A stretch of 62,864 nt of DNA, counting the filler, from Folioceros fuciformis (lineage: Eukaryota), in the NCBI GenBank assembly GCA_049999805.1. It is 16 parts of 16 records of this genome, joined end to end, with 100 filler letters (N's around TTAATTAATTAA, not from the genome) between each part and the next. Parts side by side here need not be neighbours in the genome. Positions count along the whole stretch, not along the records: positions 36,217 to 40,436 come from JBNGIO010003865.1; 15 more parts are not named here. One strand, given 5' to 3'. Position 1 is the first letter of the stretch, and each line of letters starts with the position of its first letter. A program made the position numbers and the translations under genes. Below, one piece after another: positions 9,190 to 62,864 of this stretch. The notes beneath the pieces were generated by a model. The model saw only the letters and a list, made by a program, of their open reading frames with translations. It had not been told where the DNA came from and ran no database searches.

Positions 9190-10268
9190 TGATCGCCAAG
9201 CGGGCATGGTATCTCTACCAGGCACCCGCTCACATGTATCATGGCCACATCAATCCCACGGTCGTTGTAGGTTTCCCCGGAATCGCTCCCCTCTAAGCCT
9301 GGTCAGCTACATCTATCGCTCCCCTACACTAGTCAACTCTCCCAACCACGTACCTACCAATCTGGCCACACGTCCCATCAATAGGTAGACACCATTCCTT
9401 CACTTGGAAGGGCCCCAGTACCTCCCCTACCGATTTCTACCTTCCAATCACATTCCTACCAATCGTGCAACATGTCCCGTCAGTAGGTAGGCACCATTCC
9501 TTCACTTGGAAGGGCCCCAGTACCTCCCCTACCGGTTTGTACCTCCCTACACTCGATACCTTTTCCTCACAAGGCTCCCTACAACACCTTCCTCTACCCA
9601 CAATCTAGCTGCTCATCTCCCTACACCCAGCAACCAACGAGTTTCCTCCGAGCCTACTCCGCTCCCTCCAACTCTGTTTATCGTTCGCCTACAACATTCA
9701 ACCTTTCCCAGCGCGTACCTTCAACACGTCCAGTCAGTAGGTAGGCACCATTGCTTCACTTGGAAGGGCCCCAGTACCTCCCCTACCAACTTCCAACTAC
9801 CTACACCCAGCACCTTTCCCCACAAGTCTCCTCACAACACCTTCTACACGATCCAACTCCACATTTCCCTACGTCCAATACTCCCAACCAGACATCACAA
9901 GAACCTTTGCGATCGGCAACAGAAAGGGCACTCGCAGCCCCCCCTTCCGCCAGGATGTCCACGCATGCTTACGAAAATTGGTTCTCTATTCATCACGAAA
10001 CACTTACAATCAAAGAACGGGGGCCTAACTCAAGTTCTTCGTTCTACTTATATAGGATGGCATATGGCTTCCTACCTACCACTAGCCGCGGCCAGCTTTA
10101 ACTACGCACACCTACCAAGAGGCTAAGACCTACCAATAGTTGCTAAGGCAGTGCGCGCCGATGAAGATTAGGACTGTCGGTGCCGCCATAGAAGATTCGT
10201 TGACCCCCTTTTTCAAAAAGTTATGGCTAGGATGGCTCTTGAAGGGAGGCAGAGTCTGAAGGTTGAGC
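9190..10268 (-). mobile_element. Athila-like LTR 3' portion, family B
   Basis: Colinear with 40583-41475 and 62595-62864. It holds three copies of CACCATT.CTTCACTTGGAAGGGCCCCAGTACCTCCCCTACC and the U5 motif GTCGTTGTAG at 9261. Confidence 0.75.
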
Positions 10269-12328: not shown

Positions 12329-15300
12329 ACGTCCAGCATAGTAGATTGGGTAGTCCCTCCCCTTCTCATCCCACTGGCTAAGGACTGTCCCAATGGCAAA
12401 GGCTGAAACATCCACATACACATGGAATTTCTTGTCCCAATCAGGCCCCTCGAGTGTTGGTGCTGTCACAAGAGTGGTCCTCAAGTCCTGAAATGCAGCC
12501 TCCCTCGCCGCTGCCCACTCCCAAGATTGCTCCTTCCTCAATAGGCCCGTCAAAGGGGCAGCCCGTCTAGCAAAATTGGGCACAAACCGGCGGTAGTATC
12601 CGACCATTCCCAGGAATCCACGCAGCTCCTTGAGTGTGGTTGGGGCCCTCAAGGCAGCAATCACCTTCACCTTATCCGGGTCCAATTCAATGCCTCGTGC
12701 TGAAATTCTATGACCCAGCAAGATCCCTTCAGCCATACCAAAATAGCATTTCTCCAGGTGCAAACAAAGTTGCGTCTCCCGGCACCTAGCCAAGCATAGC
12801 CTTAGGTGCTCTAGATGTTGTTCCACCCTTCCAGACACACAAAAATCATCTATGAACACCTCCAAGAACTTGTGGAGGAAGTCCTTGAAGATCTTGTACA
12901 TGCTGCTCATGAAAGACCCTAGTGCTCCTATCAGCCCAAAGGCACTCCTCTTGTAGGCAAAAGTCCCCCAATCGGTTGTGAAGGCTGTCAATGGCCAATC
13001 ACTCTCCCTTAGGGACAGCTGATTGTAACCGGAGTAGCCATCCAAAAAGGAGTACATCATGCGGCCAACCACCAAATCCAGGATGTTGTCAATGAATGGT
13101 AAGGGAAAATGATCCTTCTTGGTGGCCTTGTTCAGCCTCCTCTAGTCCTGGCACACCCGAATCTTACCAGGCTGTTTCTTAGGCACCACCACGATTGGGG
13201 CCACCCACTCTGAATTCACAATGGGAAAAATCACATCTGCCTTCAAGTACTGCTCCAGCTGTTCCTTTACCTTCATGGAGTACTTTGGATTCAGCTTGTA
13301 TTGTGGAATTCGGACAGGGACAGCTCCTGGTTCCAAGTCAATCTTGTGCTCCCCCCATTCCTTGGGAATTCCCTTCATGTCCGTCACCTCAAAGGCAAAC
13401 ACATCGACGAACTCAGCCAAGAGTTGCTTCATCCCCTCCTCCAATGTGGCATCCAGCTGTTTTGCAAACTTCAGCGCCTTGCCCGGCAGTACCTCCACAT
13501 CCTTGATTTCATCAGCCTGCACCCATTCACGCTCCACCGGTGCTGAGCTGACTCCAAACCCCTCNNNNNNNNNNNNNNNNNNNNNNNNNNNNNNNNNNNN
13601 NNNNNNNNNNNNNNNNNNNNNNNNNNNNNNNNNNNNNNNNNNNNNNNNNNNNNNNNNNNNNNNNGGCAGTACCTCCACATCCTTGATTTCATCAGCCTGC
13701 ACCCATTCACGCTCCACCGGTGCTGAGTTGACTCCAAACCCCTCCTCCGGCTCCCGGGGATCTTCCTCCGTCATTCCCCATTCCCTGAATAGGTCTTCAA
13801 AGGTAATTCTAGTGACCTCCGACTCATCTCCAGCAAGCCCTTCAGCCCTTGGATCACAGCCCCCTTCTCTCATCTCACCTTCCTTCACACCTCCCTTGGC
13901 ATGGAGGATTTTCTTCTGGTTGGCAACTTCAGCAACTTCCCCTTTCACATTTAATTTTTTAGCCCCTGCCATGTTGCAATCCAGGGTGATCCCAAAACAC
14001 TCCACCCGGTTCAGGGTATAAGGAATATCCCTCCGGTAGTCCCCCTCTTCATCTATCCATGAGAGGTGAGAAAAGGGGAATTTATCCTCCCCCTCCTCCC
14101 CCTCCAAATCAGTTGTATCCCCCACGGACGTGTACCCTTCGGTGTCCGTTGGGGTCTCACCAAGGTAGACGTCCCGGCTCCAGGTCAAACAAATCCTACC
14201 CTCCTTGGTCTTGGGGTCGCATTCAGGTGGTTTGAAGGCCACTTCCTTCCTCCCCCATGACAGCCTGCACCTTGAGCCATACAACCAAGTCCTGCCCAGC
14301 AAGATGTCATAGCCCGGTGCCTTGTGCTGAATAACCACGAAATCGAGGAGGTAGGGGATGGTCTCTATGGTTGTAGTCACCCCCCTCAACTCCCCCACCG
14401 GCTGCATCCTGGACATATCAGCCAGCCTCAAGACCTTGGTTGTGGGCTCCACCTCCAACCCGAGCTTCTTGGCAGTGTCCTCCGTCATGATATTCACCCC
14501 TGAACCCGTGTCCAGCGGAACCCTCTTAATCACGCAGCCTGCAATCTCCACCTGCAACTCGGCCGGCCCTTGGTCCACCATGGACACCATGTTGACCATA
14601 GGGGCTGACACTCTTGGCCTTGATTTAGGCAGCCTTTGCTTCTTGGGTTGGGCTTCTTGCAAGGCCTTCCGGACTTGCTGCCGGTATTTGGGGTTGTCCT
14701 TCAAGAGCTGACCAAAAGTGACAACGAATTGCTGATCCATGATGGCCCCAGCCAAGTCGAATGGCTTTTGGATAGCCCCGGCTGTACCTTCAGTCACTGC
14801 TGCCACCTCCCTAGGCGGCTCACTTGCAGCCACAGGCCCTGCCACCTTTGCTGCCTTATCCAGCTCCTCTTGGATCATGTCCATGACCTCTCCCCGCACA
14901 TCTGGTGGGAATTCTAGGTTCCCCTCCTTTGCTGGAGCTACTTCCTTTCCAGCCCTTAATTTTTCCTTCTCGGAGCTTTGTCCCCCGGTCACGTGTGGAG
15001 TGCTCTTCCCTTCCTCCTTCGATCCGGTAGTGGATTCAACTTCCTTCCTTCTCTTCTTGGCACTCTGTTGCTTCCCTCTCTTCCTTCCACTATGGGTGCA
15101 TACTGCCATGGCTGCAGCCTCCCCATAGTAACCCCCCATCATGGTGTCCAGGCCTTCCAATCCCTGAAGCACCCTGGCCTCAGCCTCCTCCCAAACAGCC
15201 ATGAGGGCGTCCTCCACGTGCATGGCCGTTGCAGCCCCTTGAGGTGCTGCTTGCTGCACCCCTGTCACCACTAGCTGGGCGATCCTCACACTCTTTCTAG

Positions 15301-17088
15301 GGTTCTGGCAAAGCACGCTGCCCGCCACATGCCCTTGCTGTTTGCAGTCCTGGCACAACCTATCATAATCCCCATTGGCTTGCCTGGTTGCTGAGGGGCA
15401 ACTATTGGCATAATGTCCAAAGCCTCGGCAATTGTAGCATTGGACCACCCCCGCTGTTTGATTAGCAACCCTCCCCATTTGGTTGCTGCGACCACCCATG
15501 CTCATGGGATTTCGCAGAATGGAAGGGAGGGCCGTCTTGGGGTATTGCTGCCCTTGGGGAAACTCCTGAATTTGGTAGGAGTCCTCCACCTGGCACTCCT
15601 CTTCTCCCCCCTCATAGGTCAGCAAGTGCACCTTGGCCCCTTGACAGTGGGTCTTGGTGTGGCCTTGCTCACCACAAGTGGAGCAAAATAGGTTAGCCTT
15701 GCCACTAGTTGCAGCCCTTCTTCTCTCATGTTCCTTGACTGCATGGAGATGAAACTTCTCGAACTTGCTCATCATCTCCTCCATCTTGGACTCTTGCTGC
15801 TCTACCTTCTTGGCTGCAGCCTCAGCCTCTTTCTTGACCTGCTCCACCTCCCTCTTAGCATTAGCCACCTCTTGTTTGGCCTTAGCCAGATCTTTGGCCT
15901 TCTTTGCCTCCTTCTTCCTCCTAACCCCCGCTTGCTCCTTCTTCTTCCGTCTTCTCTTGGCCGCCTCATCCTCCGAGGACTCCTCCTCCCCGCTGTCTTC
16001 CGTTGAGGATGAAGAGGTCCCCGCTGATGATTCTTTTAAAAATCGCTCTCCTCGGAGGGATCTTCATCCGAGGAGGATGACTCCCTCTTCTTCTTCCCCT
16101 TCCTAGGCCTGTTCCTCTTCTTATCCTTCTCCCTCACTCTCTCCTTCTCCTTGGATTTCCCCTTGCCCCAAGGATGAGACTCCTTGTAGTAGAGGGCCGC
16201 CTTGATAGCCCTATCCACATCCTTCTCTGCAAACAATTTCACGTGGCCCCCCATCCTAGATCCTAGGCCTCCAGCAAACCACCGAATGGCCTGCAAGTCC
16301 AAATGAGGGCCACAGCAATCTCGCAGGCTGTGGAACCTCTCCACAGAGGCCTGTAAAGTCTCCCTCCTCCTCCTTCTCATGGCCTCCAACTTGGACAGCA
16401 CGTAGCCTTCTACGTCTATCCCCCTGAACCGCTCACAAAAGGCCCTCTTTAGCACATCAAAAGTTGCTGGAAATGTGCCGGCCTTGAGGTACTCCCTCCT
16501 ATACCACTTGGCAGGCCCTCCACTTAGTACACCATAGAACAATTGGACACGCTGTGCATCCATTGATTCCTGGTTAGCATGGGTCAGCTGTTCAAATCTC
16601 TCCACAAATTCATCCGGGTCCTCATACCCCTTCTTCTCCCCATACAAGGGGTACGGCTGCTTGGTGGACATTGCAACAGCTGGTGTCGCCATGGGGCTTG
16701 TCCTTCCCCCTGCAGTTGCAGTTTCAGCAACTCTAGCCCCTGGAATTTGGCTGATGTTGCTAAATCCTTCAGGTCCCACACTCCCAAGCACCTGCACAAA
16801 CCCAGGTTTAGTGTCAAAGGGCAGGCTCGGGTTAGGTTGGCTTGGCTTAGGCCCCTCCCCTGCTGCAGAAAGTTGGGGGTCTTGCCCCAACGTGGCTGAA
16901 TCCCCCAAGGCCTGCTGGTTGCTTGCCCCTCTCCTCCTCCAATCCGGTGTATGCCCAGGTCGTGTCCGCCTCAACCCCCTCTCCACTGCTCTTTGCTCAC
17001 GCTCCAATACTTGCTGCTGCCTCCTTGCTTGAGCTTGAGCTCCCCCTTCACATCTGGAGTTGAAATCTTCAGCACCTATGCGGGGCAT
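12329..17088 (-). mobile_element. Athila-type Ty3/gypsy gag-pol (capsid, zinc knuckles, protease, RT, RNase H start), inactivated
   Basis: Gag ORF 16036-17088; CCHC knuckles (CYNCRGFGHYANSC); protease LDTGSGVN; RT motifs KDHFPLPFID, LDGYSGYNQ, FIDDF; RNase H-region FHVYVDVSAFAIG. Frameshift at ~16036 and TAG replacing Tyr in CQD*R at 13142. Confidence 0.93.
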
Positions 17089-17162
17089 CCATCAGCCCTG
17101 CCACACTCCCTTTTCAGTCCCCTATCCAAGTCAGTCCTCCCCAACCTTGACAGCAATGTCAC

Positions 17163-17180
17163 TCCCCGGCAATGGCCCCA
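17163..17180 (-). promoter_or_regulatory. Primer-binding site complementary to the tRNA-Asp 3' end
   Basis: Minus strand reads TGGGGCCATTGCCGGGGA versus the canonical Athila PBS TGGCGCCGTTGCCGGGGA. It lies 3 nt after the LTR end ...CTCCACA (17184) and upstream of gag. Confidence 0.88.
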
Positions 17181-17183
17181 AAA

Positions 17184-17536
17184 TGTGGAGTGGAACTTGC
17201 ACCTAAGAACCACCACGGGCCACACCTCCCCCTGGTTATTGTCATAGTACTAGGGTTCGCTCCCAAGGGAGTGAACCAGTGTCAAGGTTTTCTACAACTT
17301 CCCCCACTCTGCCCTAATCTGATCCTAACTATCAACCGATCCCTAGACCTAACCGCACTACAGCAAAATGATCAGAACCTCGTCTCCAATACCAACTACC
17401 ACCTCAGCTGAACGAGGGCTCAACATCATCTTCAGCCCCCACTCCAGCACAACGGCTCTCTACTCCAGCACTCCAACACTTCAATCCTTCACCACCACGT
17501 CTCACTCCTGGATTTCAAACACAACAGCCCTTCACT
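17184..17536 (-). mobile_element. 5' LTR (U5 side, truncated by scaffold end) of the Athila-type element
   Basis: CA terminus next to the PBS; closely homologous to 37602-37900. Confidence 0.85.
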
Positions 17537-17716: not shown

Positions 17717-18465
17717 ATGAGTGATCTTGAATAAGCAGATTTTATGGATCGTTTATTTATCATTAAAATAATACCGAGTGTAAATTCAAATGTCGAGATT
17801 AGGGCAAATTGAAAGGTAAGTAAGTAAGTAAGTGTACATTCCAATGAGCCCCGGTGAGGCTGAAGAAGCTGCAGTTCTAGAAAGGGGCGTTCGGGAGGAG
17901 CTGCGACGAACTTCACCTGAGGTAGGTGGAGGGATTGAATACCCAAAATCTCAACGAAATGGTTGATAAGGTGGGAGTGACGAAATGACGTCGTGTGGAT
18001 GTGCGACCGATTCCACGCGCGTTCACACCCGCTGGCAGCCACGAAGGAGAGGAGGACGGGTTCCAAGGTGTGGCCGCATCGTGCTGCTGAATCACAGCCG
18101 GTAGGTCGAGCTGGCCGCGATGACCACGCCCTGCCATGCCATTGGCGAGGCTTCGTCGCCGATTCCGTGCTGGCCGCTTGAGCCGATCTGAGATCGCTTG
18201 CTTGCATGTTGACAGTATAAGATCGGGGAGAGGCGAGCTCGTCTTTGTTGCATGCAGATCTGGTGTGAGGTGTGGGTGCGGCTGGGATCGGGGTTGAGAG
18301 TGGGATCTGTGTGGAATGAGGGTTGGCTGACATCGCGCTGTTGTTGCATGTCGGTGGAGCAGGGGNNNNNNNNNNNNNNNNNNNNNNNNNNNNNNNNNNN
18401 NNNNNNNNNNNNNNNNNNNNNNNNNNNNNNNNNNNNNNNNNNNNNNNNNNNNNNNNNNNNNNNNN

Positions 18466-19934
18466 AGGAGGACGGAGAGACGGACAAGCCGAGCTTCGTT
18501 CTGGAGCTGGATGCGTCTACTTTTGAGGATGCCGTGGCCAAGCATGACTTCATCGTGGTGGAGTTCTATGCGCCGTGGTGCGGCCATTGTAAGAATCTGG
18601 CCCCGGAGTACGAGAAGGCGGCTGAGATTTTGAAGGAGAATGATCCTCCCATCGTCCTGGCAAAGGTGAACGCCGACGAGAAGGAGAATAAGGCGCTGGC
18701 GGAGGAGCACGAAGTGCGGGGGTTTCCCACGCTCAAGATCTTCCGGGGCAAGAGTTTGGTCGGGGTAGAGTACAAGGGGCCGCGGGATGCGGACGGGATT
18801 GTGGAGTACTTGAAGAAGCAGGCGGGGCCGGTGTCGCAGGAGCTGACGTCGGCGGAGCAGGCTAAGGAGTTGGTGGCCAGCGCTCCTGTGGTGATTGTAG
18901 GTTTGTTTGAGGAGTTCGAGGGGGAGGACTACTCCAGGTTCATCATCGCGGCGGAGTCTGTGCGGTCGGATTTTGTTTTCGCGCACACCAAGGATCCCTC
19001 GCACTTGCGCGGAGATGTGAAGGCGCCGGCCGTGGGACTGTTCAAGGCCTTTGATGAGGGGTTTGCGAGCAGCAAGGACTTTAGCTTGCAGGCTCTGACG
19101 GCCTTCTTTGAGGAGGAGAGCTTGCCGTTGGTGACGGAGATGAACAAGGACCCGGCGTTGCATCCCTTCCTTCTCAGGTTCTTCAACCACCCGGACCCTA
19201 AGGTGTTCTTTTTGGTGGACTACTCGGCGAGCAACATCGATGAGCACAAGAAGGTGTATTCGGAACAGGCTAAGGTTGCCAAGGGGAAGGGTCTCAAGTT
19301 CTTGATCGCCAACTTGGAGGACGCTGAGAACGCCCTCAAGTTTTTCGGGCTTGAGCGGGAGACGGCCCCTGTCCTCATCATCCAGGATAACGAGGACCAC
19401 AAGTTCGTGAAGGAGAACGCGGACCCCTCGGAGGTGGCGTCCTGGCTTTCTGACTACTTCGAGGGCAAGTTGGTGCCGCGTGTTAAGTCCGAGCCCGTTC
19501 CCGAGACCAATGATGAGCCTGTGAAGGTTGTGGTGCAGAAGACGCTGAACAGCTTCCTGGTTTCTGGCAAGTTCGTCCTGTTGGAGTTTTACGCCCCGTG
19601 GTGTGGGCATTGCAAGAAGCTGGCTCCCACTCTGGATGAAGTGGCTGAGTACTTCCAGGACAAGCCTGATGTGGTGATTGCCAAGTTCGATGCCACGGCC
19701 AACGATGTTCCCAAGGACTTGTTCGATGTAGACGGCTTTCCGACCTTATATCTCCATACTCCCAAGGGTGAGGCCGTTCTGTACACCGGTGACCGGAGCA
19801 AGGAAGATCTCATAGAGTTCATTGAGAAACATAGGAACCCAGACTTTGTAAGTCATGTGGAATCAGCCACAGAGCCTGCCACAGCGGAGTCCAAGACAGG
19901 AGAGGCACACGCGGATGTCAAAGATGAGTTGTAA
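18466..19934 (+). CDS. PDIL1: ER protein disulfide isomerase, classical a-b-b'-a' type; start codon and signal peptide hidden in the gap 18366-18465
   Basis: Two EFYAPWCGHCK active sites, intervening b/b' domains, the KSEPVPETNDEPVKVVV linker and C-terminal KDEL-stop. The visible ORF is uninterrupted. Confidence 0.96.
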
Positions 19935-27997: not shown

Positions 27998-30900
27998 TGT
28001 GGGGGAAAATATTGCACCCGGGGGTGCTACTAGGTCCACACAAACCCTCTTTGTCGTTATAGCATTGGGATTCAATCCCAAGGGAATAAGTTGTGTCAAA
28101 TAACACAGGTTTTCTCACAAAGTCAACTGCTACCCAAGGTCAGTCTTACTCACCTGCCGCTCGACTACCTCCTATTCAACTACTTCTGCCCCGTCGCGAC
28201 TCGGCTACCGCCATCGCCTCCTCAACTACCTTGACCCTAGACTACCTGACAGGAATACTCGGCTACCGGGGTGGGTGTCACTCCAACTACCGTCACTCAG
28301 CTACCTCGTCGCCTCCACAACTACCGCTCTGCTTGGCTACCCTCGTTGTCCCTCTACAACGGTCGCTGTTCCGACTACCTCAGTGGGGCCCACTATCTCT
28401 CTCTTCCTCCTTTTTCTCTCTCTCACTTCCCCTCTCTCACTCCTTTCTCTCTCTCCCTCTCTCACTCCAAGTAACTCACCACACTGACTCGCACTTCTCA
28501 CGGTCATGACCAGCCACCGGACTCTCTTACTTGCAGCCACACTTACCTCACAGCCTACTCCCTTCCATCTGTGCCTGTCTGCTCGTCATTCCGATTCGAG
28601 ACCTGTCGGCGCTCGTTTCACACACATACACACAAGCACACACTCACGACATCCATCGTCGTCTTTCTCCGGTTACTCCACGAACTCTCATACCTAGCAG
28701 CACGCACCGATGCGTCCACGCTCACACACACACTTCGGTCACGATCCCAAATCAATCTCCCCAAATCCACTCACACCCCACTGCTCTCCAGTCACACGCG
28801 CATGCAGTCTTACTTTCAATCCACGGGCATTCCTTCTCAGCACATAGTCACTCCTGGCCCTCACTCTCTCTCTCCTGTAATTTGGTAGGAACGATGGGAT
28901 CACTAGAGGCTAAGGGAAGGGGCATCCACTTCCACTCCGAACTTGCGGATTCGGCCCCCGACGCCCTCACCATTGCACGTGATCGTCACGAGGATAGCTG
29001 GGGCGCTCGTCTCCCACTCAGCGAGGTTCCCCCTCCTGATTCGTCCCTGTAACCCAATCATGGAGCATCCACCACCTACACCCACACCCTCAGAACACTA
29101 CGTGCGCTCGCTTGCCTGGACCTCCTATCCAGCAACGGCCATCGCTAGGCTTTCGCAAGGTTGGAATATTGGGCTGATTTTTGCTGATTTTTCCGAGGCC
29201 CCAAACCGGCCTCTTGTACACGGTAGTGGCGGTCCCTTCCACCATAAAGTCTGTCAGGGGTTAGTCAGCGCTCTTAATTTATGAGCGGCTTAGGTCCAAG
29301 CAAAAGCAATCTAAAAAACACTAGCCTAGACTGCAATTACTATCGCCTCTCTCTTTGCTGTTGGCGCCTTCATCCTGGCTGTCGCGGTCCTCCCCTTACT
29401 GGCCCACCCCTGGCCCTCCTACCCCTTCGTTGGTCAGGCAGGTCCTCCCAAAGGACCTCCACCTTACTGCTACTGCTGCTGGACCTTGCTGGCGGCGGCG
29501 AAGGTGGCTCCCGTCATAGGGAATCCCTCTCCTCCCTCCGTCGCCGATTACTGAGGACGAGGACGGGCTCCCGCTCAACCCACTGTTGCGCCTCCTCCTC
29601 CATCAATTCCTCCAGGACTGCCTCATAATAGCAGTGAGGCAGCCCCCATACTCGCCAGCGGTAGTAGTAGAGGCCCCTGCGGGTCCTCAGTTGCAGGCCG
29701 TAGCCCCGCGTCCCTCCTGTGCCCATGCGTACATACAAAAACAACTTCAGACTCGGGCTCCTTCCACATAGAGGCCTAGCACATAAGAGGCCTCCTCCTC
29801 ATACTGCAACACAACCCGATCCTCTGTCATAAAGGAGGTGCTTACCCCTTCCTCCCTTGGGCTACCTCGGGCTGCCTGCCCCCTGCTCTCCTGAGGTACC
29901 TGAGGGTCCTCCATCCCTCCAGCTACTGCTTCCCCCGGCTCAGTCCGCTTTGTGCGAGTCGCCCTCCCGGAGCACCTGGGCACAGGCGCCACCGCCAGCA
30001 CCTCTTTGGCCACTGGGGTCGTCCCTCCTCTACCGGTAGCCCCTTCGGCTACCGGCGTGGCCACTCGACTACCGGTAGCCCTATTGGCTACCGGCACTGT
30101 TGCTCGACTACCGGTAGCCCCGTCGGCTACTGGCACTGTTGCTCGACTATCGGTAGCCCCGCCGGCTATCGGCATTGTTGCTCGACTAATAGTAGCCTCT
30201 TCGGCTACCGGCGTCGCCGTTCGACTACTCCGCCCAACCTTGCCCTTCCCCTTCACTCACTCCCTGGCCTCATCCCACTCCCATTTGTACTTGTCGGCTA
30301 GCTTCTGGACTTGTTCCACCGCAGCCATCTCCTGCTCCTGAGCCCTAGCCATCTCCTGTTGCATTTCCAAATTAGTCTCATGGGCTTCCCTCACCTGGGC
30401 TAGGAGTGTCCCCTATTGCTCCTTCAGCACCTGTATCTCTGCCTTCGTCTGCCTTCGCCTGGCGCACCTCTTCCTCCACCTGTGCCTTGTCCTCACTCAA
30501 GACCCGCTGCTTCTCCTCCAGGAGCCGCCGTGCCGTCTCGGACTCCGCCAACTGCCTCCAGGCTTTGGCCTCCTTCCCTCTCGCCTCTGCCTCCTTGCTT
30601 TGGGCCTTAGCCTCCTTCTCCGCCTGCATGCTTAGCCAGGTCAGCGCCCTAGCCGCCTGGTCCAGCAAGTCTGCTTGTGCCTGGACCATTGTTAAGGTTA
30701 GTCCTTGTAGGTCCACCTCCTGTGACTCCACAGGGGCCATTCCCTTCTTGGTTATCTGCCTTCTTAGCAGCGCCCGCAGTCTCTCCAGCTCCCTTTGCCT
30801 ATAGCCTATCCACCTGAGGAATTTTCCTAAAAACATCTTCCCATCCTGGAAAGACTTCCTGTTCCAGTACGTGCCCTAATTTGCTCATGACCTCAGGAGG

Positions 30901-36216: not shown

Positions 36217-36734
36217 CGTCTAACAGATTGTTGCTGTTCATGTGTGCGTGCGCTTGTTTCCGAGGTGAGTGAGACGGTTTGTGGTGAACCAAGGAAGGGA
36301 AGCGCCAAAGAGGATGCGCGGGCGGGAGGTAATCAGTCGGGTAGGAATGACCCGGTGGAAGAGAAAATCCTAGAGAGCCGGAACTAAGAGAGAGAGAGTG
36401 GGACCCACGAGCAGTAGATCGTCAGGCGACCGTCGCCCGAAAGGCGACAGAGGTAGCCCGGTGGGCAACCAAGGGTAGTCTAGGGGAAGGTAGCCCCTGG
36501 GGCGACCGGGTGGTCGAGGGGTCGTCCGGTGGGGAAGTAAGGGGGCTTGGTAAGGTTCGAGCACTGGACGTGTGTGCGTGGGTCAGTCGAGCTTTAAGTG
36601 CTAATTGACTTTAGAAGCTAAACTGTGTAGTTTAACACAAATCATTCCCTTGGGATCGAATCCCAGAGCTACAACGACATAGAGGGCTTGTGTGGACCTC
36701 GCGGTACCCCCGAGTACCATATTTTAACCCCACA
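36217..36734 (+). mobile_element. Athila-like LTR 3' end (family A-related)
   Basis: 36620-36734 is the reverse-complement homolog of 27998-28110. It ends ACCCCACA with no PBS after it. Confidence 0.78.
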
Positions 36735-36885: not shown

Positions 36886-37601
36886 TGATTAGATGCTTCA
36901 TCTCAACCTATCTTCATAGAAAAAGACGCTCCNNNNNNNNNNCGGCACGCTTTCATGATGTCTCGAATTCTCTAGTTATAAGCCGATTTCTCCATTCTTG
37001 TACATCACTTTCCCTTGTACAACTGGAGGACTCAACATTCTCCCGATGGACAACGTACATCATTCTTTCTCCTGACACAGCGAAAAGCCTCGGCATCTTT
37101 ATTCTATTGATGACGCTGTACAAACACCATTCAGGTAAAGAATGATACGGGTACAAAGGAGGAGTACCTTTTCTTGACACGTTGCCTGCAAGAGAAATAT
37201 TTTACACTAGAAAGTGCCTGAAGAGACTTAGCAGCAGACTTGCCAGAGCAACTTCTTGGGTTGTAAAAGTAACAACTTTAGGTAGCCCTTGTCAGCCACC
37301 CCTCTCTGTACATTGCGGGTCGATGGTACATCACTTCAATTCAAAAATATAACCCCCGCCACAGGTACCCCATGCATTAATGAATGACCAACTCCACTAG
37401 GATGGAGTAAATCAGCTTACACCCCAAGTGGAACGCTATGAATGCCTACGAATAGATAGTAGCAGTGCAGAATTAACTCATGAACTCCACGGTTTGGTTT
37501 GGATACTACATCAAGTCAGTTCCTTCAAATCCTACTATGAAGCACCAACCTAAGGGGTAGACCCAAATATCTGAGGGTTACTGGTAAAGTAGATGGCATC
37601 A

Positions 37602-38340
37602 TGTGGAGTGATTTCCTGCACCCAAGAACCACCAAAGGACCACACCTCCCCTTATTGTCGTTGTAGTCTTATGATTCGCTCCCAAGGGAGTGAACTAGTG
37701 TCAAGGAACACCTACAGCTATCTACTCACACTTCTACCTATTAGCCGGTCTATAGGCCTGACCACACACACACAACAAAGAGGCCAGAAGCCTAGCCTAT
37801 CTTCAAATCAGCTCACACAACTCACTTCAGATCTTCAGTCCTTCAGCTCTTCATGATTTCCACTTCAGTCCTTCCTTCTTCACTTCAGCCCTTCACCCTT
37901 CACTTCAGCACACACTCCTGCACCTCAGCAACTCACTCTTCACTTATATGCACTTCACTCCAACTCTTCCTCTCTTTGCTTCAGCTATCCCCTGGAAATT
38001 GGGACACAACAGCTTCACTCCTTGCAACCTTCAAGCATAGTGTGGATACTAGGACTAGATAGCCCTCCTAGCTCACGGTCCTGTCACTTCACTTCAGTCA
38101 GCCTGCGAATCATTCAGCCCTTGCAGATCCGGCCACACGGATCTTGGTAGTCTTGGGATCCTCCACGTTCCCCTAGTGGCAAGGGAAATCAGGACCTTGG
38201 TTCAGTCTCAACCGGCTCAGCGCCCTAAGCCAAGAGTTCTGGACACAAGGTCCAGAGAAATCGCACCGTAGACAGCCCCCTCTCAGTGGCAGGTCTCCCC
38301 TCTTATACTGCCTACCCTCTATCTCTGTCTACTAGGGTTA
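37602..38340 (-). mobile_element. Athila-type LTR, U5 side (far boundary uncertain)
   Basis: Aligns with 17184-17536 (TGTGGAGTG..TGCACC.AAGAACCACCA..CCACACCTCCCC..TTCGCTCCCAAGGGAGTGAAC.AGTGTCAAGG). Confidence 0.8.
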
Positions 38341-38344
38341 ACCT

Positions 38345-38620
38345 GAATCAATTACCCCACCTCCTCTCTCTGACCTAACCAAGTTCTGACCTAAAACTGA
38401 CCTAGGTATGACCTAACCTAACCTAATCTAGGTCTGACCTAACCTGGATCTGACCTAAACCTAACCCATATCTAACCTAAGTCTAACCCAGACCTAACCT
38501 AGGTTTGACCTAAACCTAACCTAGACCTAACCTAAGTCTAATCCAGACCTAACCTAACCTAGGTCTGACCTAAACCTAACCTAGACCTAACCTAACCTAG
38601 AATCCTAACTCTAACCTACC
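38345..38620. repeat. Degenerate (CCTAA/ACCTAG)n array
   Basis: Dense ACCTAACCTAACCTAG/GACCTAA units. Confidence 0.85.
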
Positions 38621-40582
38621 CTTGCTTCTAATTGCCCATTGCCCCATGACACCGTTAGCTGCCCACAATTATCAACCCCTCACATCTAGCAAAAATCAGG
38701 GGTGCCTCTCAACATCCCTCTCCTCTCCGAGGTCAGATCATCTCCACTCTTCTGATTATCCTGCCTTCTTCCCCAAAGTCTCCCATCTTCAGGTCCTTCC
38801 CTCCATCCTGCTGGCCACGGCTGGCCAAGACTCCTGGCCTTGCAACTTGCCCACCAAGCAATCCTGAATAAGGAATCCGCCCTCCTATCAACATAACCAC
38901 CATTGGGCTTCCCACCACGAGTAGCATACCTAGGCTAGGCCTTCGGCCTACAAGCAACCACGGTTGCTACTCATGGATGGAAAGCCAAGTGTCACTTATA
39001 TCCTTATCGGACCACCCTCCAAGCTGCTAGACAGGTCTGCTGGACTGATGCCCTTGAGCGGATAACCCCAGGGTGTCGCATCTTGGCATGGCATACACCA
39101 TCCATCATCGCCGCAATTAGCATCCAGCCCTCGGCCTACGGTAGCGAGTCAGTTCCAACCCACTAACCGCGGATGGCAAGCCGTATGCTAATTGCAGCCA
39201 CTGGCTGCCATGGTACAGGGGATGTACTACCCTTGCCTTCGATGCTTGGGTGGGGCAGTCCACGCCCCCCCCCCCCAATGCCATCCCCACGCCCTAAGAT
39301 AGCTTGGCAGTAGCCTACAACCAGTGTTTCAATGTCAAGCTGTCATCCTTGGAGTGTCCCTCGGGACACTCCCCTGTCTTCCCCCTGGGCAGCCGCCTAC
39401 TCGGCTGTTACAAGGGGAAGACGCCTACTCGGTTGTTAGGCCTACTGGCTGTCCAACCAGCCATCTGGCCAGTCTTCGGCTGCTAGATCCGGTCGAGACC
39501 ATTCTGTCCAACTCGAAGGAACGACCATACAGAACCGCCGATGGGGTCAGTTGATCTGCACTGCACCTAGTTTGACCAGGATTTGGAACAAGCCGCTCTC
39601 CTTGGTTTGCAATGCACTAAGTGCAAGTCCGTCCGTGCCTGGGTGCTCTCGGATTCAACCGCTTATCCTCAGCCACCGCCTGGATTCGGCCAGCACGTCG
39701 TGACTCCCCTAGCTCTGCTTCCAGCCAAACTGCGACTATCCCAGCTGCTTGGTCTCCGGCTGATCGGGACTGGATCCAGTCAGCTAGCCTGGTTGCCGAG
39801 TCGCCTGCCGTTTTCTTGATTCAGCTAGCTGGCCAGCTGACCAGACTCGACTGGCCAGCCTACCTTTGCCTGGATCTGGCCAGGCGGCCAGCCCGTAGGC
39901 CGCCTACTGCCCACTTGCAATTGGAGCGGGCTAGGTTGCTAACCAAACTCCTCACCGCCATCTCCAGCCAACAACCCCCTTGTTCGGCCATCCGTCACGG
40001 CTCATCTCGGCTGCTCACGGCCGGGCTTTCGCCTGGCTAAGACAGCTAGCCAGGCGAGCCAAATAGAACGTACCTCTGGGAATTCCTGAATCATCTTGCA
40101 AACAGCCAAGACACCTTGGGTGGAATGTAGTTAAAGTTTCTAGTGTGTAACAGAAGGAGGTGATCAACAGGAAACCAAGACTAAAGGCCACAAGAGCAAG
40201 GAAAGAAAAAAAGCCCATTTTCGGATTACTTTCTTTGGTGTTAACTCAACTTTTTTTTCAATGCATTTGTGCAACTGCCCATCATCACTACAAAAGCTTT
40301 TTTAGCTTATTGTCACCTGAGCACCAACCAATCATCAAGATATCTTCTTATAGGGCCAGAACGCTTCTTCACGGCCTTTGCTTCTTGAATTATTTTCTGC
40401 CTCCGTATCTAATCCCGCCACCCCCCTCTTTTAGGGNNNNNNNNNNNNNNNNNNNNNNNNNNNNNNNNNNNNNNNNNNNNTTAATTAATTAANNNNNNNN
40501 NNNNNNNNNNNNNNNNNNNNNNNNNNNNNNNNNNNNTTTTTCAACCAAAACAAACTACTACCCCAAACTTTGGAGGTTCACA

Positions 40583-47567: not shown

Positions 47568-50130
47568 GAAGTTGACCAAAAGCATGATTAGCGTAGGGCA
47601 GTTGGATGACGTTGGCTACCACTGTTGGTTTGGAGATCGTTCTTGGAAGATCTCCAAAGGTTCTCTTGTGTTAGCTCGTGGATCGAAGTGTGGCACTTTG
47701 TACTCACTTCAGGTAACCACTGTCAAGGATCATGTGATTTGTGTAACGGAAAAGCCAAGTATTTCTTTGTGGCATAGTCGGTTAGGACATATGTCTCAAA
47801 AAGGAATGAAGATACTATCTCGTTTAGGTTACGTCCCTGCTTTTGACTTCTCCGATTTCTCCATGTGTGAGCACTGTCTGTATGGGAAACAGACGAAGTC
47901 ACCACATGGAGCAAGAGGTAAACACAAAAGTAAACCTCTTGAGTTGGTTCACAATGACGTTTGCGGACCTATGCCCACTGTATCGTTAGGCGGTGCATCC
48001 TATTTTGTCACTTTCATAGATGATTTCTCACGCAAGGTGTGGGTTTATCCTTTGAGGAAAAAGGATGATGTTCTGACAGTGTTTTAGAAGTTTGTCACCC
48101 TTGTGGAGAATCAGTCTGGCCTGCGACTGAAATGTCTAAGGACAGACAATGGGAGAGAGTATGTTTTGAAGGCTTTCCAGTCATTCTGTGATTCCAAGGG
48201 AATCAGGAGAGAATTGACTGCCCCATACACTCCTCCCCTGAATGGTGTGGCCGAACACATGAACACGACCATATGCGCAGTTTGTTGTCAAACTTTGGAT
48301 TGCCTAACGAATTTTGGGCAGAAACAGTGGCTACAGCGGTGCATCTTATTAATAGATCTCCTAATAGGGCTATGGATGAATAGGTTCCAGAAGAGATGTG
48401 GTCTGGAAAGAAGCCGTCATACAAGCATTTACGAGTGTTTGGCTGCGAGGCATACTACCATGTTCCGAAGGAGTTTCGGGACAAGTTGCCACCTAAGTCC
48501 AAGAAATGTATTTTTCTTGGCTATGGTGAATCTGGTGAGATGGGATACCGTATGTGGGATCTAGAGGCCAAGAGGATGGTTCGGAGCAATGACGTGTTCT
48601 TCAATGAGACCAAGATGCACAAGAAGCCTACTCCAATTGTGGAGGTGCGACGGGTGGTCTTNNNNNNNNNNNNNNNNNNNNNNNNNNNNNNNNNNNNNNN
48701 NNNNNNNNNNNNNNNNNNNNNNNNNNNNNNNNNNNNNNNNNNNNNNNNNNNNNNNNNNNNNTGATTATGTCATGCTGACGGATTGTGGGAAGCCCTCTAG
48801 TTACCAAGAGGCCATGTCAGTTACTGACAAGGACAAGTGGGAGAAGGCGATGCAGTCATAGATGGATTCGCTCCACAAGAACCGAACTTGGGAGTTGGTT
48901 CGGTTGCCTAAGGGTAAGAAGGCGTTGCCATGCAAATGGGTATATAAGATGAAGGACATACCCCATTATAGCAAACCCAAGTACAAGGCACGATTGGTTG
49001 CGAAGGGTTTTAAGCAACAGCAAGGTATTGACTTTGATGAGATTTTCTCACCGGTTGTCAAAATGACCACCTTGTGATGTGTTCTTGGTCTGGTTGCGAG
49101 GCTCGACATGGAATTTGTCCAGATGGATGTGAAGTCAGCATTTTTGCATAGTGATCTCCAGGAAGAGGTATACATGCAGCAACCAGAGGGTTTCATTGAG
49201 AAGGGCAAAGAGAATCTGGTGTGTAGGTTGAAGAAGAGCCTTTATGGTCTGAAGCAGGCACCAAGAGAGTGGTATTTCAAGTTCCGCTCATTTATGCTTT
49301 CTCAAGGCTATAAGCGTAGCGATGAGGATCATTGCCTCTATACGAAGCAAGCTAAGGATGGAAGCTTGCTCATTCTAGTCCTCTATGTGGGTGATATGCT
49401 AATTGCTGGGACTAACAGTGATGAGATTTTAGCGTTGAAGTCAAAGTTGAATGGTCGTTTTGACATGACAGACTTGGAAGAGGCAAGCCATATTCTTGGC
49501 ATGTGTATTCGTCGAGAGAGACATAAGCGTTTGCTGTACTTGTCTCAGACTGAATACATTAACAAGGTGCTTCAACGTTTCAATATGGAGAAGGGGAAGG
49601 TCTTAAGTACGCCGTTGCCTCCATATGTGAAACTTTCGAGCAAGGATTGCCCAAGTTCTGTGGAGGATAAAGCTGAAATGGAGAAGGTTCCATACTCATC
49701 AGCTATAGGGAGTTTGATGTATGCAATGATTGCTACACGTCATGACATTGCTTTTGCAGTGGGAGTGGTTAGCAGGTTCATGTCAAACCTTGGCAGGAAG
49801 CATTGGGAGGCAGTGAAAGGAGTTGTGAGGTACTTGAATGGTACGAAAGCTTTGTGCATATGTTTTGGTAGTGAAGATGCATCTGTCGTGGGATATACGG
49901 ATGCTGATTATGCAGGGGATATGGACAAAAGGAGGTCCACATCAGATTATGTCTTCATGTGCATTGGAGGGGCAGTCTCATGGTGATCTCGTTTGCAATC
50001 GTGCATAACGCTATCTACCACAGAGGCCGAGAATGTTGCAGCGACTGAGGCATGCATGGAAGCCATGTGGCTTGCTCGTCTAGTGGGAGATTTGGGGATC
50101 AAGGTTGAGCTGCCAGTGTTGCATTGTGCA
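47568..50130 (+). mobile_element. Ty1/copia (Tnt1-like) pol: pre-integrase, integrase, RT, RNase H; multiple stops and frameshifts
   Basis: [58 protein letters not shown] and GYTDADYAGDMDKRRST. The RT active site is decayed to YVGD. Confidence 0.95.
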
Positions 50131-54665: not shown

Positions 54666-55060
54666 TGTGGTGGCAAAACCCCGGGCACTGTTTGCCAACG
54701 GGTTCAACCTTTAGCAGCCACAGTTATCCCACTGTCGTTGAGACGTTGGGTTTCGTTCCCACGAAGGAGCGATGGGGTTCCTAGCTGCTCTAGATGGAGG
54801 GTCAGACTCAATCGTTTCGATGACGGATTCAAGGGCTCCCCTCCAGCTTCGATCATGCGTGGGACAGTCCTCGCTGTCCGGTCAATTGCACCTCTCTCGG
54901 TGCCCACAAACTCACATTAGTCACTACAACGACCCTAACCTCTCAAATCTGGGACTTCCCTCACTCGCTTCACTCACTCACTCACTCCAGCACCAGCATC
55001 CAGCAACCAGCAACGACACCACTACCTTCTACGCTTCCCTATGGACTCCCCCTACTCGGC
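54666..55060 (-). mobile_element. Divergent Athila-like LTR U5 fragment
   Basis: TG start at 54666, CCACA, GTCGTTG at 54734 and GGGTTTCGTTCCC at 54748, in the same order as in the other LTR ends. Confidence 0.55.
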
Positions 55061-56050: not shown

Positions 56051-59000
56051 ATTAGTAACAGTGCGCAACGAATTTTATTCTCTCCGCATGAATAATAATG
56101 AGAGCATTGGTACTTATGTTGGCAAGTTTCGTTATCTTTGGGCCTAGCTTGCTGCCTTAGGCACTCCCTTATCGAAATTCGAAGCTTGTGTCCAACTGTT
56201 GGCCTCCCTTCCTGCCAGCTTTCAAGCATTTGTGTCCTCTCAAAATGGCATTGTTCGAGAGGCTCATCAGGCGGTAAAGGCTGGCCGCACACCTAACATT
56301 TCCATCTCTGAAATTGCCGGCGCTCTTCTTCAAGAGGAGGCTTCCAGATACAACACTGGCACTTCGAAGCATGGTGGTGAACGAGTTCTGTTCGTTCGCA
56401 AAGGCCGTCAACGCCACCAGCCCCACCAGCGACGTCGTCCTCCTCCACCTGATAGACGCCCCTTCACTGTGCCTTCTCCGGCTCCTGGTCGTGGACCTTC
56501 GGCATCCAAACCTGCTAGTTCCGGCCGTAAGCCCGGTACTTGCAACTGGTGTCAAATTCCAAGCCATTGGAAGCCTGACTGCCGCAAGAAGAAAGCTGGC
56601 GAGCCTCGACGTCCATCCAAGANNNNNNNNNNNNNNNNNNNNNNNNNNNNNNNNNNNNNNNNNNNNNNNNNNNNNNNNNNNNNNNNNNNNNNNNNNNNNN
56701 NNNNNNNNNNNNNNNNNNNNNNTCCATCCAAGACTGCCAATACGGCCTCGACCTCCAAGCAGAAACAAGCCGGCATTGCCCTCACAATCTACTTGGTAGC
56801 TTTTGAATATAAGACCTCTTGGCTATTTGATTCCGCTGCCTCCGAGCATATATGCTGCCATCGTCATATGTTTTCTAATTATCTCCTTGCCGAAGATCAA
56901 CATTTTGTTCTTCTCGGCGACGACTCTGGCCTTACTATTGCGGGCACTAGCACTGTTACTTTTACTCTTGAAGATGGTTATGTGCTTCTTCTAAGTGATG
57001 TGCTGCATGTTCCGCAAATGGCGAAGAATCTTATTTTTGTTCGACACTTGGTGAAGGACGGTACATTCCAGCTAGAGTTTGGAAGAGACGATTGCCTCCT
57101 CACAAGATCTGTTGCTCCTGATCGCGTGGTTGCCAGAGATCGTCCGCGGCATGATCTCTATGTCTTCTTTGCCGTACCAGTGATCACGGCTTCCTCGACC
57201 CCAGCTTCCGCAATGGTAACTGTGGTCGACAGAGGGAGTTCCTGCAAAGGTGACTCCCTATTATGGCATTCTCGGCTTGGACAAATTAATCATGCTAAGC
57301 TTCTCGAGATGTCTAGGCAGGATTTATTTACGAATAAGCTACCTCACTTTTCACAGACTCCACTATTATGTGGACATTGTATATATGCTAAACAACATAC
57401 CTTCCCCTATCCTACTCTCCTTGCCCGTTGGGCTACTCAGCCCTTGGAGTTGGTCCATGTTGATCTTTGTGGTCCACTTCCCATCCTTTCACTTGGTGGC
57501 CCACTGCATTTTATGACTATTGTTGACGACTATAGTTGCTATATCTTTGCTATTCTGCTCAAGTTGAAGAGTGACTCCTTCGGCTCCTTTGCTATTTTTG
57601 TCACTATGGCCGAGCTGCAAACCGGTTGCAAGCTTCGGTGTATTAGATCTGACAATGCAGGGGAATTAAATAACCGGCAATTTAAGAATTTCTGTCTTGA
57701 GAGGGGGATTCTCCGTCAATTTATGATTCCCTATACTTCTCAGCAGAATGGGGTTGCTGAAAAGGCCAACGGCGATCTGCTCGCCATGGCCCGTGCTATG
57801 CTAGCCTGCGCTCCGCTCCCCAAACCCTTCTAGGCCAAAGCGATTAATACTGCAGCGTATCTCCGCAACAGGGTACTTTCCAAGTCCGTTCTTGACCAGA
57901 CACCCTTTGAGTCTTAGCATGGATATAAGCCTCTTATTACTCATCTTCGGATTTTCGGCTTCCCCGCCTATGCTAATATTCCTTCTCAACTTCGCGACAA
58001 GCTTTCTGCTCGTGCTCGCAAGCTGGTATTTGTTGGCTATGGCGAGGACCGTAAGGCTTATAAACTGGTTGACTTGGATACCCATGCTATTGTATATGCT
58101 CGCACTGTCACTTTTGATGAGGCTTGGTTAGCATCTGCTCGTTCTGAGTCCATGGATTCTACTTCGGCTCCTTCAGACGACACTGCTTCTTCCGACCCAA
58201 GTGACCTTATGCCTGAGTTTTTGACTCAGCCCTCTATTTTCCCGGACTTTGGTCCCGCACCCACTGCTCCATCCTTGGCCTCTTCACCTCAAGCAGCACC
58301 TATCCCTATTGTTCCTGCTCAAGAGGGGGAAGATGAACAGGCCATTATTGATCCTTATGAAAACAGAGAAGACTTTGGTGCTCTTAATCCACAAGACCCA
58401 AAGACTGTTCTTGCTCCACCTTCTCCTGTAATACTTGATCCAGTCCCTGAGCGAAGATATCCTTTGCGTCATCGTCAACCGAGACACCTATGGAATGAGA
58501 TCCCCTTTGATTTAGAGTTCAATAAGCTGGCTACACCACCACTGCCGCAGGTCACTTCAACACCTTTAGTGTTGCCCCTTCAAAGGGAGATCCTCTCACT
58601 TAACAAGAGTCATATTCGTGACCCGATGCAGCTAAGTGGAAGTTTGCTATTGATGATGAATATAATTCTCTTATAATACTTGGACTCTAGTAAACTTGCC
58701 GAAAGGCAGAACTACTGTCAAATGCAAGTGGGTTCTCAAAACTAAATTCCATGAGGTTGAACCTTGATGAACTGGGTCTAGATTAGGGCACTATTCATTA
58801 GGGCCTCGTAACTTTAAACATTATTATCTACCTAGGGTTTATATTGGTTTGTTAGTGGTTATATTAGTTATATTACTTGCAACCGCTTACGGTTGCAACC
58901 GCCCAACCACCTAGCCTATGTAAAGGCTTGTACTTTACTCATTAATTGATTCCGTTGTTTTCTTTCCTATCTGAGAGCTATTGATTCTCATCAGTATTCG

Positions 59001-62594: not shown

Positions 62595-62864
62595 TGTGGG
62601 CAGGCGGGTATGGTACCCCTACCAGGCACCCGCTCACATGTATCGTAGCCACATCAATCCCATGGTTGTTGTAGGCTTCCTCAGAATCGCTCCCCTCTAA
62701 GCCTGGTCAGCTACGTATATCGTTCCCCTACAATAGTCAATCCTCCCAATCACGTACCTACCAATCTTGCAACACGTCCAGTCAGTAGGTAGGCACCATT
62801 CCTTCCCTTGGAAGGGCCCCAGTACCTCCCCTACCGATTTCTACCTCCTTACACTCAATACCTT
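62595..62864 (-). mobile_element. Family B LTR 3' end abutting the start of the above ORF
   Basis: Colinear with 9190-9440; terminus TGTGGGCAGGCGGG. Confidence 0.8.

Follow-up and report, generated by a model that had tools for sequence, protein, structure and literature searches.

A tRNA-Asp-like module in the U5 ends of Athila-type elements, its U5-leader stem and a candidate second primer contact

Athila-type LTR ends in the window analysed here, a stretch of 62,864 bases, share a short U5 module that, judged by its sequence, is very probably real and related to tRNA-Asp. A U5-leader stem is also real, and it pairs with the 3′ half of the primer-binding site (PBS). Beside this stem, box A of the module is a putative second contact for the primer tRNA, a reading that our modelling of the pairing leaves evenly balanced. 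The contact with the tRNA T arm, which had been proposed together with box A in the original prediction, is doubtful.

Results

Elements of the window and their orientation

Short unplaced plant scaffolds were strung together artificially to form the window, so adjacent pieces are not genomic neighbours and every LTR end of the finding lies on a separate scaffold. Scaffold joints consist of 44 N, TTAATTAATTAA and another 44 N, and gaps of 100 N and 10 N occur inside scaffolds. Most of the Athila-type LTR ends in the window lie on the minus strand. The plus-strand sequence of 17163-17180 is TCCCCGGCAATGGCCCCA, followed by AAA and then by TGTGGAGTGG; it resembles the tRNA-Asp 3′ end, which places the PBS and its element on the minus strand:

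17163..17180, minus strand: PBS of a family-a element; plus strand resembling the tRNA-Asp 3′ end at 16/18 positions, 3-base spacer

A tRNA-Asp PBS had been predicted for this element, and the match at 16 of the 18 positions bears this out. One marker of the Athila lineage, a tRNA-Asp PBS a few A/T bases past the LTR end, is thus present (16/18, 3-base spacer). Downstream of the PBS, the Retrotrans_gag, zf-CCHC, aspartyl protease, RVT_1 and RT_RNaseH_2 domains follow in this order on the minus strand (12329-17091); the order from gag to RNase H is seen within the scaffold, and the integrase of this element would fall beyond the scaffold end.

Since the element lies on the minus strand, GTCGTTGTAG as read on the plus strand is in the tRNA sense and its complement is carried by the element RNA. 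The geometry of the predicted pairing therefore stands, the element RNA having the complement of the tRNA 5′ end, with the correction that the elements are antisense to the plus strand; it is this antisense orientation that makes the pairing idea geometrically right.

Other content of the window was recorded in its own right. An open frame of at least 488 aa at 18468-19934 (plus strand) contains two thioredoxin domains and a Thioredoxin_6 domain and is protein disulfide isomerase-like; intronless and in a repeat-rich plant scaffold, it could be a retrocopy or foreign DNA. A Ty1/copia reverse transcriptase is found at 49078-49986 and an integrase at 56724-58676. The scaffold with the family-a LTR also contains, at 38373-38622, an array of ACCTAACCTAA-like units of 11, 22 and 55 nt, whose weak miRNA matches in Rfam are at chance level.

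A conserved module near the LTR ends

The LTR ends and their modules were placed as follows, in four families (a to d):

37602..37656, minus strand: last 55 nt of U5, family a; TGTGG at 37602 on the plus strand, element-sense LTR end ...CCACA
37657..37667, minus strand: box A, family a; plus strand GTCGTTGTAGT, equal to tRNA-Asp nt 1-11, with the complement in the element RNA
37673..37683, minus strand: T-arm-like word, family a; GATTCGCTCCC in the tRNA sense, the best-conserved U5 block between families
37682..37694, minus strand: strand S1, family a; element-sense TTCACTCCCTTGG, its predicted partner being the PBS 3′ half and leader bases
17184..17275, minus strand: family-a 5′ LTR end; terminus 17184, degenerate box 17241-17250, T-arm-like word 17253-17264, S1 17263-17275
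27998..28090, minus strand: family-b LTR end; box 28053-28062 (GTCGTTATAG), T-arm-like word 28067-28079
36634..36734, plus strand (element): family-b LTR end; box 36669-36678 and T-arm-like word 36652-36664, both minus-strand reads
9207..9291, minus strand: family-c LTR end; box 9261-9270, terminus uncertain
62611..62710, minus strand: second copy of family c; box 62665-62674 (GTTGTTGTAG)
54666..54764, minus strand: family-d LTR end; box 54734-54743 (GTCGTTGAGA), T-arm-like word 54748-54760, terminus guessed
17931..17956, plus strand: eighth module, family-d-like and unlisted earlier; minus-strand read TTCGTTGAGA, four bases, GGGTATTCAATCCC
54924..54933, minus strand: inverted box copy in the family-d LTR; GTCGTTGTAG without mismatch, read in element sense, some 190 nt upstream of the family-d box

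The terminus of family a is firm: 37602 is a breakpoint in contigs of the host sequencing runs, beyond which their flanks differ, and in one host contig the family-a LTR end is followed by a tRNA-Asp PBS complement (17/18). In family b, two copies part exactly at TGTGG. The terminus of family c is uncertain, the similarity of its two copies beginning at 9197, ten bases before the placed 9207; after its box, TCCCCGG at 9274-9280 (tRNA nt 59-65) is followed by AATCGCTCCCC at 9281-9291. As placed, the boxes lie 54-68 nt from the LTR termini, those of families c and d being uncertain.

Seven LTR ends had been predicted to share a motif near the terminus, and its frequency in the window agrees with this. 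Allowing at most one mismatch, GTCGTTGTAG has 8 matches in the window against 1.81 expected, and 0/100 shuffles reach 8. Five of these matches are listed LTR ends (9261, 28053, 36669 on the minus strand, 37657 and 62665), one is the inverted copy at 54924 on the minus strand, and those at 20765 and 30701 look unrelated. Without gaps, the match to tRNA-Asp nt 1-10 is 10/10 at 37657, 9261 and 36669 (minus strand), with 37657 reaching 11/11 when the next T is included, 9/10 at 28053 and 62665, and 7/10 at 54734 (GTCGTTGAGA) and 17241 (GTCATAGTAC); three families have 10-11 nt identical to tRNA-Asp nt 1-10/11. The T-arm-like words lie at the positions predicted for them. The composite pattern CGTT..6-16..TCRNTCCC has 7 matches in the window against 0.45 expected and adds the module at 17931-17956 (minus-strand read), and its match at 1326 is probably due to chance.

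The tRNA-Asp reference came from plant-type genes on metagenome contigs and may not equal the host's own tRNA-Asp. These contigs were scanned with 15 bases of tRNA-Asp nt 59-73, a string that agrees with primers printed in PMC11039404, and at least 120 stretches were returned; those listed were sorted into 6 tRNA-Asp genes, 21 PBS-type junctions and 93 others, mostly GC-rich chance matches. All 6 plant-type tRNA-Asp(GTC) genes among the matches listed start with GTCGTTGTAGT, have the T arm GGGTTCGATCCCC and contain CCGGGTTCGATCCCCGG, and they were confirmed by ARAGORN, which on the 124 loci reported tRNA-Asp and one doubtful Trp only. The 5′ end and T arm that the original prediction had assumed are accordingly right for plant-type tRNA-Asp(GTC) (6/6 genes among the matches listed). 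A soybean small RNA printed in PMC3519564 shares its first 24 bases with these genes.

The U5 sequences of the four LTR families have a between-family identity of 0.32 per aligned column, and the top two 10-column blocks are TTCGATCCCA, which is T-arm-like (0.78), and GTCGTTGTAG, the box (0.76). The motif had been expected to be better conserved than its flanks, and these two elements of it are indeed the best-conserved blocks of U5. In a sliding 10-mer comparison of the four family representatives with the tRNA, z reached -8.9 at position 1 and -5.5 at position 53; the strongest value on the other strand was -2.4 (position 52), and the 1% max-statistic null was -3.9. In this profile the four window families gave no match to the tRNA D arm and anticodon arm. 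The duplex energy of window U5 RNA with the tRNA gave z -8.0 for nt 1-12 and z -3.7 for nt 1-27. For single copies, the nt 1-27 duplex is significant at p < 0.05 in 3/7 window copies, and the 37657 box gave an RNAduplex energy of -23.4 kcal/mol against tRNA nt 1-27 (p 0.0075, 400 shuffles).

The same figures bear on whether the module could be a chance resemblance, or else an antisense tRNA pseudogene, a SINE or a polymerase III promoter in the LTR. The T-arm-like word does resemble a B box. The shuffle tests, however, reject chance, and the window families lack an A-box region (10-mer profile positions 7-25). A tRNA gene, pseudogene or tRNA-derived SINE was rejected because tRNA models recognise none, ARAGORN finding no tRNA in the window and Rfam giving no tRNA match at E <= 10. 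We consider explanations of this kind hardly credible.

Copies of family a in the host were compared by aligning contigs of three runs from one sample on window 37450-37850. Most related host copies have C at box position 8, and many have A at position 1. Among the rows listed, T>C at 37664 (41 contigs of run X1, the majority) and G>A at 37657 (22 contigs of run X1) are the two commonest box variants, and both keep a G.U pair with the tRNA; since transitions are the commonest changes anyway, such G.U-compatible variants are weak evidence. No variant at 37665-37700 was found among the rows listed. Contig depth across 37604-37701 is far above that of the flanks and is not usable to rank parts of the stretch. 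As a separate observation, run X3 has 19 G>A differences against 5 in X1 and X2, as might be expected if the same sample had been used for a converted (bisulfite-type) library.

Predicted pairing with the tRNA 5′ strand in independent families

Loci outside the window were chosen by their PBS alone, and the box was not used in the choice. In a PBS-type junction, CCA (CAA in L047) comes after the scan pattern, and an A/T spacer leads on to an LTR end. Among the PBS-type loci listed, L056 was excluded as too short, L041, L047, L078 and L075 were dropped as duplicates, and 16 family representatives were picked by eye; the tests on these loci were designed after the sequences had been viewed. Plain Smith-Waterman and chained-segment scores were noisy and had an unclean swapped-order control, and were therefore given little weight.

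The junctions of L005, L041 and L107 resemble the Brassicaceae ATHILA junction TATCA + ATT + TGGCGCCGTTGCC given in the accessible text of a preprint (10.64898/2026.03.20.713144). By tblastn, the window gag and pol had a sole match of 41 aa among the fetched loci, in L037, and no link was found between the window gag and the Brassicaceae-type junction loci. Viral contigs scanned with the 18-nt PBS complement gave 4 matches, all of them GC-rich phage. In three of the loci, L009, L099 and L117, AAATGCTTGTTGGC-type ends come after the tRNA-Asp PBS complement, and second partial copies of AACGGCGCC occur within 60-75 nt in L009 and L117; these loci may belong to another class of element or consist of tandem PBS-like repeats.

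The U5 RNA of the 16 representatives resembles the complement of the tRNA 5′ part in a strand-specific and region-specific manner. The alignment score against tRNA nt 1-25 gave z 3.3 (p 0.003), compared with z -1.2 for the other strand, z -0.1 for tRNA nt 13-37 and z -1.4 for a reversed decoy. The duplex energy against tRNA nt 1-27 gave z -5.1 relative to shuffles (other strand z +1.2, reversed decoy z +1.7), and a subset of 14 representatives gave z -4.6 for the U5 end. In control regions of the same loci, the leaders gave z +0.9 and the LTR interior z -0.5. In L008, L054, L067, L012, L090 and L107, the distance of the duplexes from the LTR end is 33-85 nt. Those outside the window extend into the D arm, reaching tRNA nt 1-25 in L008 (-22.6 kcal/mol), and the U5 complement spans the D arm in L008, L090 and L107.

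The signal is uneven, with 5/20 outside loci individually significant (p < 0.05). L026, L033, L037, L095 and L099 give no signal for tRNA-Asp nt 1-27, and L037 is the nearest relative of family a. The predicted pairing with the tRNA 5′ strand is thus supported in part: its strand and region specificity holds across the 16 families taken together, and several tRNA-Asp-primed families lack it.

Elements with another primer are also present in the window:

7127, 7745, 11430, 34049, 46221 and 55778, window: tRNA-iMet-type PBSs of four LTR families

The 10-mer box is absent from the U5 ends of all 4 tRNA-iMet-primed LTR families in the window, and only one of these U5 ends has a one-mismatch 7-mer, as would be expected of a motif that goes with the tRNA-Asp primer. 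The U5 RNA of tRNA-iMet-primed elements shows no excess over shuffles against tRNA-Asp nt 1-27 (z -0.5).

Complementarity to the tRNA 5′ end might also arise if the box were a target or decoy of host small RNAs cut from the tRNA-Asp 5′ end. According to the accessible part of a preprint (10.1101/085043), 19-nt 5′ tRNA fragments cleave Athila6A RNA in Arabidopsis, and small RNAs beginning GTCGTTGTAGTATAGTGG are printed in plant small-RNA papers. The window boxes, however, offer 10-11 nt of complementarity only, and an element is not expected to conserve a site that gets it cleaved. Moreover, the validated case in the accessible part of that preprint (10.1101/085043) is a Met fragment, in the 3′ region. 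A small-RNA role for the box is very improbable in our assessment.

A U5-leader stem across the PBS and the doubtful T-arm contact

When natural U5-PBS RNAs are folded, PBS nt 11-18 and 4-8 leader bases pair with the strand that directly precedes the T-arm-like word on its 5′ side. The U5 strand of this leader stem reads [NNNN]UCCCUUGG in element sense. The leader bases vary by family and the U5 strand varies in step with them, indicating covariation. Consistent with this, the mean stem energy is -16.15 kcal/mol with the own leader, compared with -13.44 kcal/mol for permuted leaders (p <= 5e-5; p 0.43 in the antisense control). In 7/16 representatives the best-ranked leader is the cognate one, and in 9/16 the cognate leader is among the top two; for the family-a end at 17184..17275, the own leader is rank 1 of 20, at -18.3 kcal/mol. 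In the host contig that spans the family-a LTR end and PBS, the leader, read by eye, is complementary to family-a S1.

The T-arm-like word best fits tRNA nt 53-62, half of which is already paired to the PBS. The U5 signal against tRNA nt 44-58, the part of the T arm free of PBS pairing, is weak, with z -1.4 for the window and z -2.0 for the outside families. In family a, S1 repeats the T-arm-like word almost perfectly in inverted orientation. Because the word overlaps both the leader stem and this inverted repeat, at least half of it is accounted for by intramolecular structure. The predicted T-arm contact therefore becomes doubtful, with weak values for nt 44-58 and a word that overlaps a covarying U5-leader stem.

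Whether intramolecular pairing explains the whole motif had been raised at the outset. It accounts for at least half of the T-arm-like word, which overlaps the leader stem, but is unlikely for the box, since U5 shows no excess over shuffles against PBS nt 5-15 (z +2.0 and +0.1). In its full form, this explanation would make the box and the T-arm-like word arms of U5/leader helices, both tRNA-like since anything that pairs with the PBS resembles tRNA stems. It draws on the real and covarying U5-leader stem and on the inverted repeat of family a. It also draws on CAACGAC, which by reading can pair with GCCGUUG of the PBS at 6/7 positions, on TGTAG-like words that precede the box by 36-52 nt in families a-c, and on the inverted copy at 54924, which could pair with the family-d box. 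Besides the missing excess against PBS nt 5-15, the T of the box at tRNA position 2 matches the tRNA and forms an A.C mismatch with the PBS, and the identity extends over tRNA nt 8-11 and over the D arm in other families, regions for which the PBS offers no partner. Furthermore, a TGTAG/CTACA stem around the module was rejected as not significant (p 0.03-0.79), and RNAalifold on the window U5 ends returned a 5-pair GGGA/UCCC hairpin alone, with no compensatory change. A purely intramolecular origin of the module is thus distinctly unlikely in our view, and a relation of the box to the tRNA itself remains the preferred reading.

Two other candidates were also tried and rejected. Self-priming of the Tf1 type is contradicted by the U5 values against PBS nt 5-15, which are not above shuffles, by a PBS that matches the tRNA and by a box internal to U5. 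An old PBS upstream of the T-arm-like word, read by eye from 17/26 matches in one copy, finds no support in the 10-mer profile at positions 58-63.

Cofolding reproduced one of the two predicted contacts. With natural U5-PBS RNAs and unmodified tRNA, RNAcofold paired the PBS in 10/10 cases and box A to the tRNA 5′ part in 1/10, namely L090; the pairing predicted for U5 and PBS with tRNA-Asp thus holds for the PBS and is seen once for the box.

Discussion

A model of primer annealing and the origin of the module

The module is compact and antisense to the primer tRNA, and it occupies the last ~100 nt of U5. In the element RNA it runs 5′ to 3′ from S1 through the T-arm-like word, a pseudo-PBS in sequence, and a spacer of 2-6 nt to box A, and continues through about 55 nt of terminal U5 and an A/T spacer of 3-6 nt to the 18-nt PBS. 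Box A is the complement of tRNA-Asp nt 1-10/11, which in other lineages extends into the D arm. In our model, the S1-leader stem would cover the 3′ half of the PBS in the free RNA. Annealing of the tRNA 3′ end to the PBS would open the acceptor and T stems of the tRNA, and the freed tRNA 5′ strand could then anneal to box A, so that the primer may be anchored to either side of the terminal part of U5.

As to its origin, the module was probably copied from a piece of the primer tRNA, although this is speculative. A broader possibility, which we put forward tentatively and would sooner doubt than accept, is that, throughout the tRNA-Asp-primed plant lineage, the U5 end is built around an antisense copy of the primer, captured as reverse transcriptase read through under-modified tRNA and now serving as a cradle. 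The leader stem would then shut the PBS, and the annealed tRNA would be unfolded and held at nearly full length except for the anticodon arm.

A copied primer need not be a primer contact. An ancestor may have copied its primer tRNA into U5, with pieces kept as a relic for another job such as packaging, dimerisation, strand transfer or protein binding. In keeping with this, the lineages retain different tRNA parts: families a, b and d have nt 1-10 and the T arm, family c has nt 1-10 and nt 59-65, L008 has nt 1-6 and 7-24, and L012 has nt 1-21, 27-32 and 44-62. The block also starts exactly at tRNA nt 1, like a run-off copy, and the accessible text of PMC13191261 describes an unmodified primer tRNA that is copied to its 5′ end. 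However, with an identity of 0.32 elsewhere in U5, a neutral relic would be erased, whereas the retained part is tied to the tRNA sequence in several lineages, and the tie exists only on the strand that pairs with the tRNA. In addition, simple read-through would place the copy after the PBS and not before it, and the extra steps needed are conjectural. A relic with another function is therefore unlikely, and we retain box A as the candidate second contact for the primer.

Plant genomes contain Athila-type elements in very high numbers, and in Arabidopsis these elements invade the centromeres, as described in the accessible part of the ATHILAfinder preprint, and the start of their reverse transcription is described so far, in the sources accessible in part, as an 18-nt PBS. 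If true, a second primer contact and a U5-leader stem would be testable control points for initiation, a signature for annotating U5 ends and solo LTRs, and a plant counterpart of retroviral and yeast initiation complexes. A module derived from the tRNA itself, if true, would show how extra contacts arise. As the box matches the tRNA-Asp 5′ end, it would favour Asp as the primer if it is functional (compare the accessible part of 10.64898/2026.03.20.713144).

Comparison with known systems

Members of the Athila lineage (Calypso/Diaspora, and those of ATHILAfinder) have an 18-nt tRNA-Asp PBS located 3-6 bases past the LTR end (PMC1142308; 10.64898/2026.03.20.713144). In their accessible parts, these descriptions cover the LTR terminus, spacer and PBS only, and do not mention a U5 site or a U5-leader stem. 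Our literature search found no earlier account of an Athila U5 site, most subscription journals lying outside it, in line with the original prediction, whose author knew of none.

A U5-leader stem is known in ASLV, as is masking of the PAS in HIV. The HIV-1 PAS and the ASLV U5-TpsiC interaction involve U5 motifs upstream of the PBS that are proposed as a second tRNA contact (accessible text of PMC13191261). The present elements resemble them in having a covarying U5-leader stem across the PBS. They differ in the tRNA region contacted, which would be the 5′ acceptor strand and D arm and not the TpsiC arm, the signal at nt 44-58 being weak. In addition, the part covered by the stem predicted here is the 3′ half of the PBS.

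In Ty1, extra regions complementary to the TpsiC and DHU arms are needed for primer packaging and initiation (PMC4974528, accessible part). Similarly, the D arm is covered by the U5 complement in L008, L090 and L107. By comparison, the Ty1 boxes lie 3′ of the PBS in GAG and the primer is tRNA-iMet, whereas the present complement is found in U5, on the 5′ side of the PBS, and takes in the 5′ strand of the acceptor stem.

The Drosophila gypsy element has a second site that pairs with part of the anticodon and TpsiC stems (PMC1635307), and Ty3 has a bipartite PBS (PMC4974528), as far as the accessible parts of these papers describe. The present elements share with them the Ty3/gypsy type and the putative use of a region other than the tRNA 3′ end for pairing with a second site. 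For cDNA synthesis, gypsy requires the 5′ PBS alone, according to the accessible text. This is distinct from the present arrangement also in its geometry: the second site of Ty3 and gypsy lies at the 3′ end of the genome and bridges the RNA ends, whereas a stretch of about 100 nt at the 5′ end contains both sites of the present elements.
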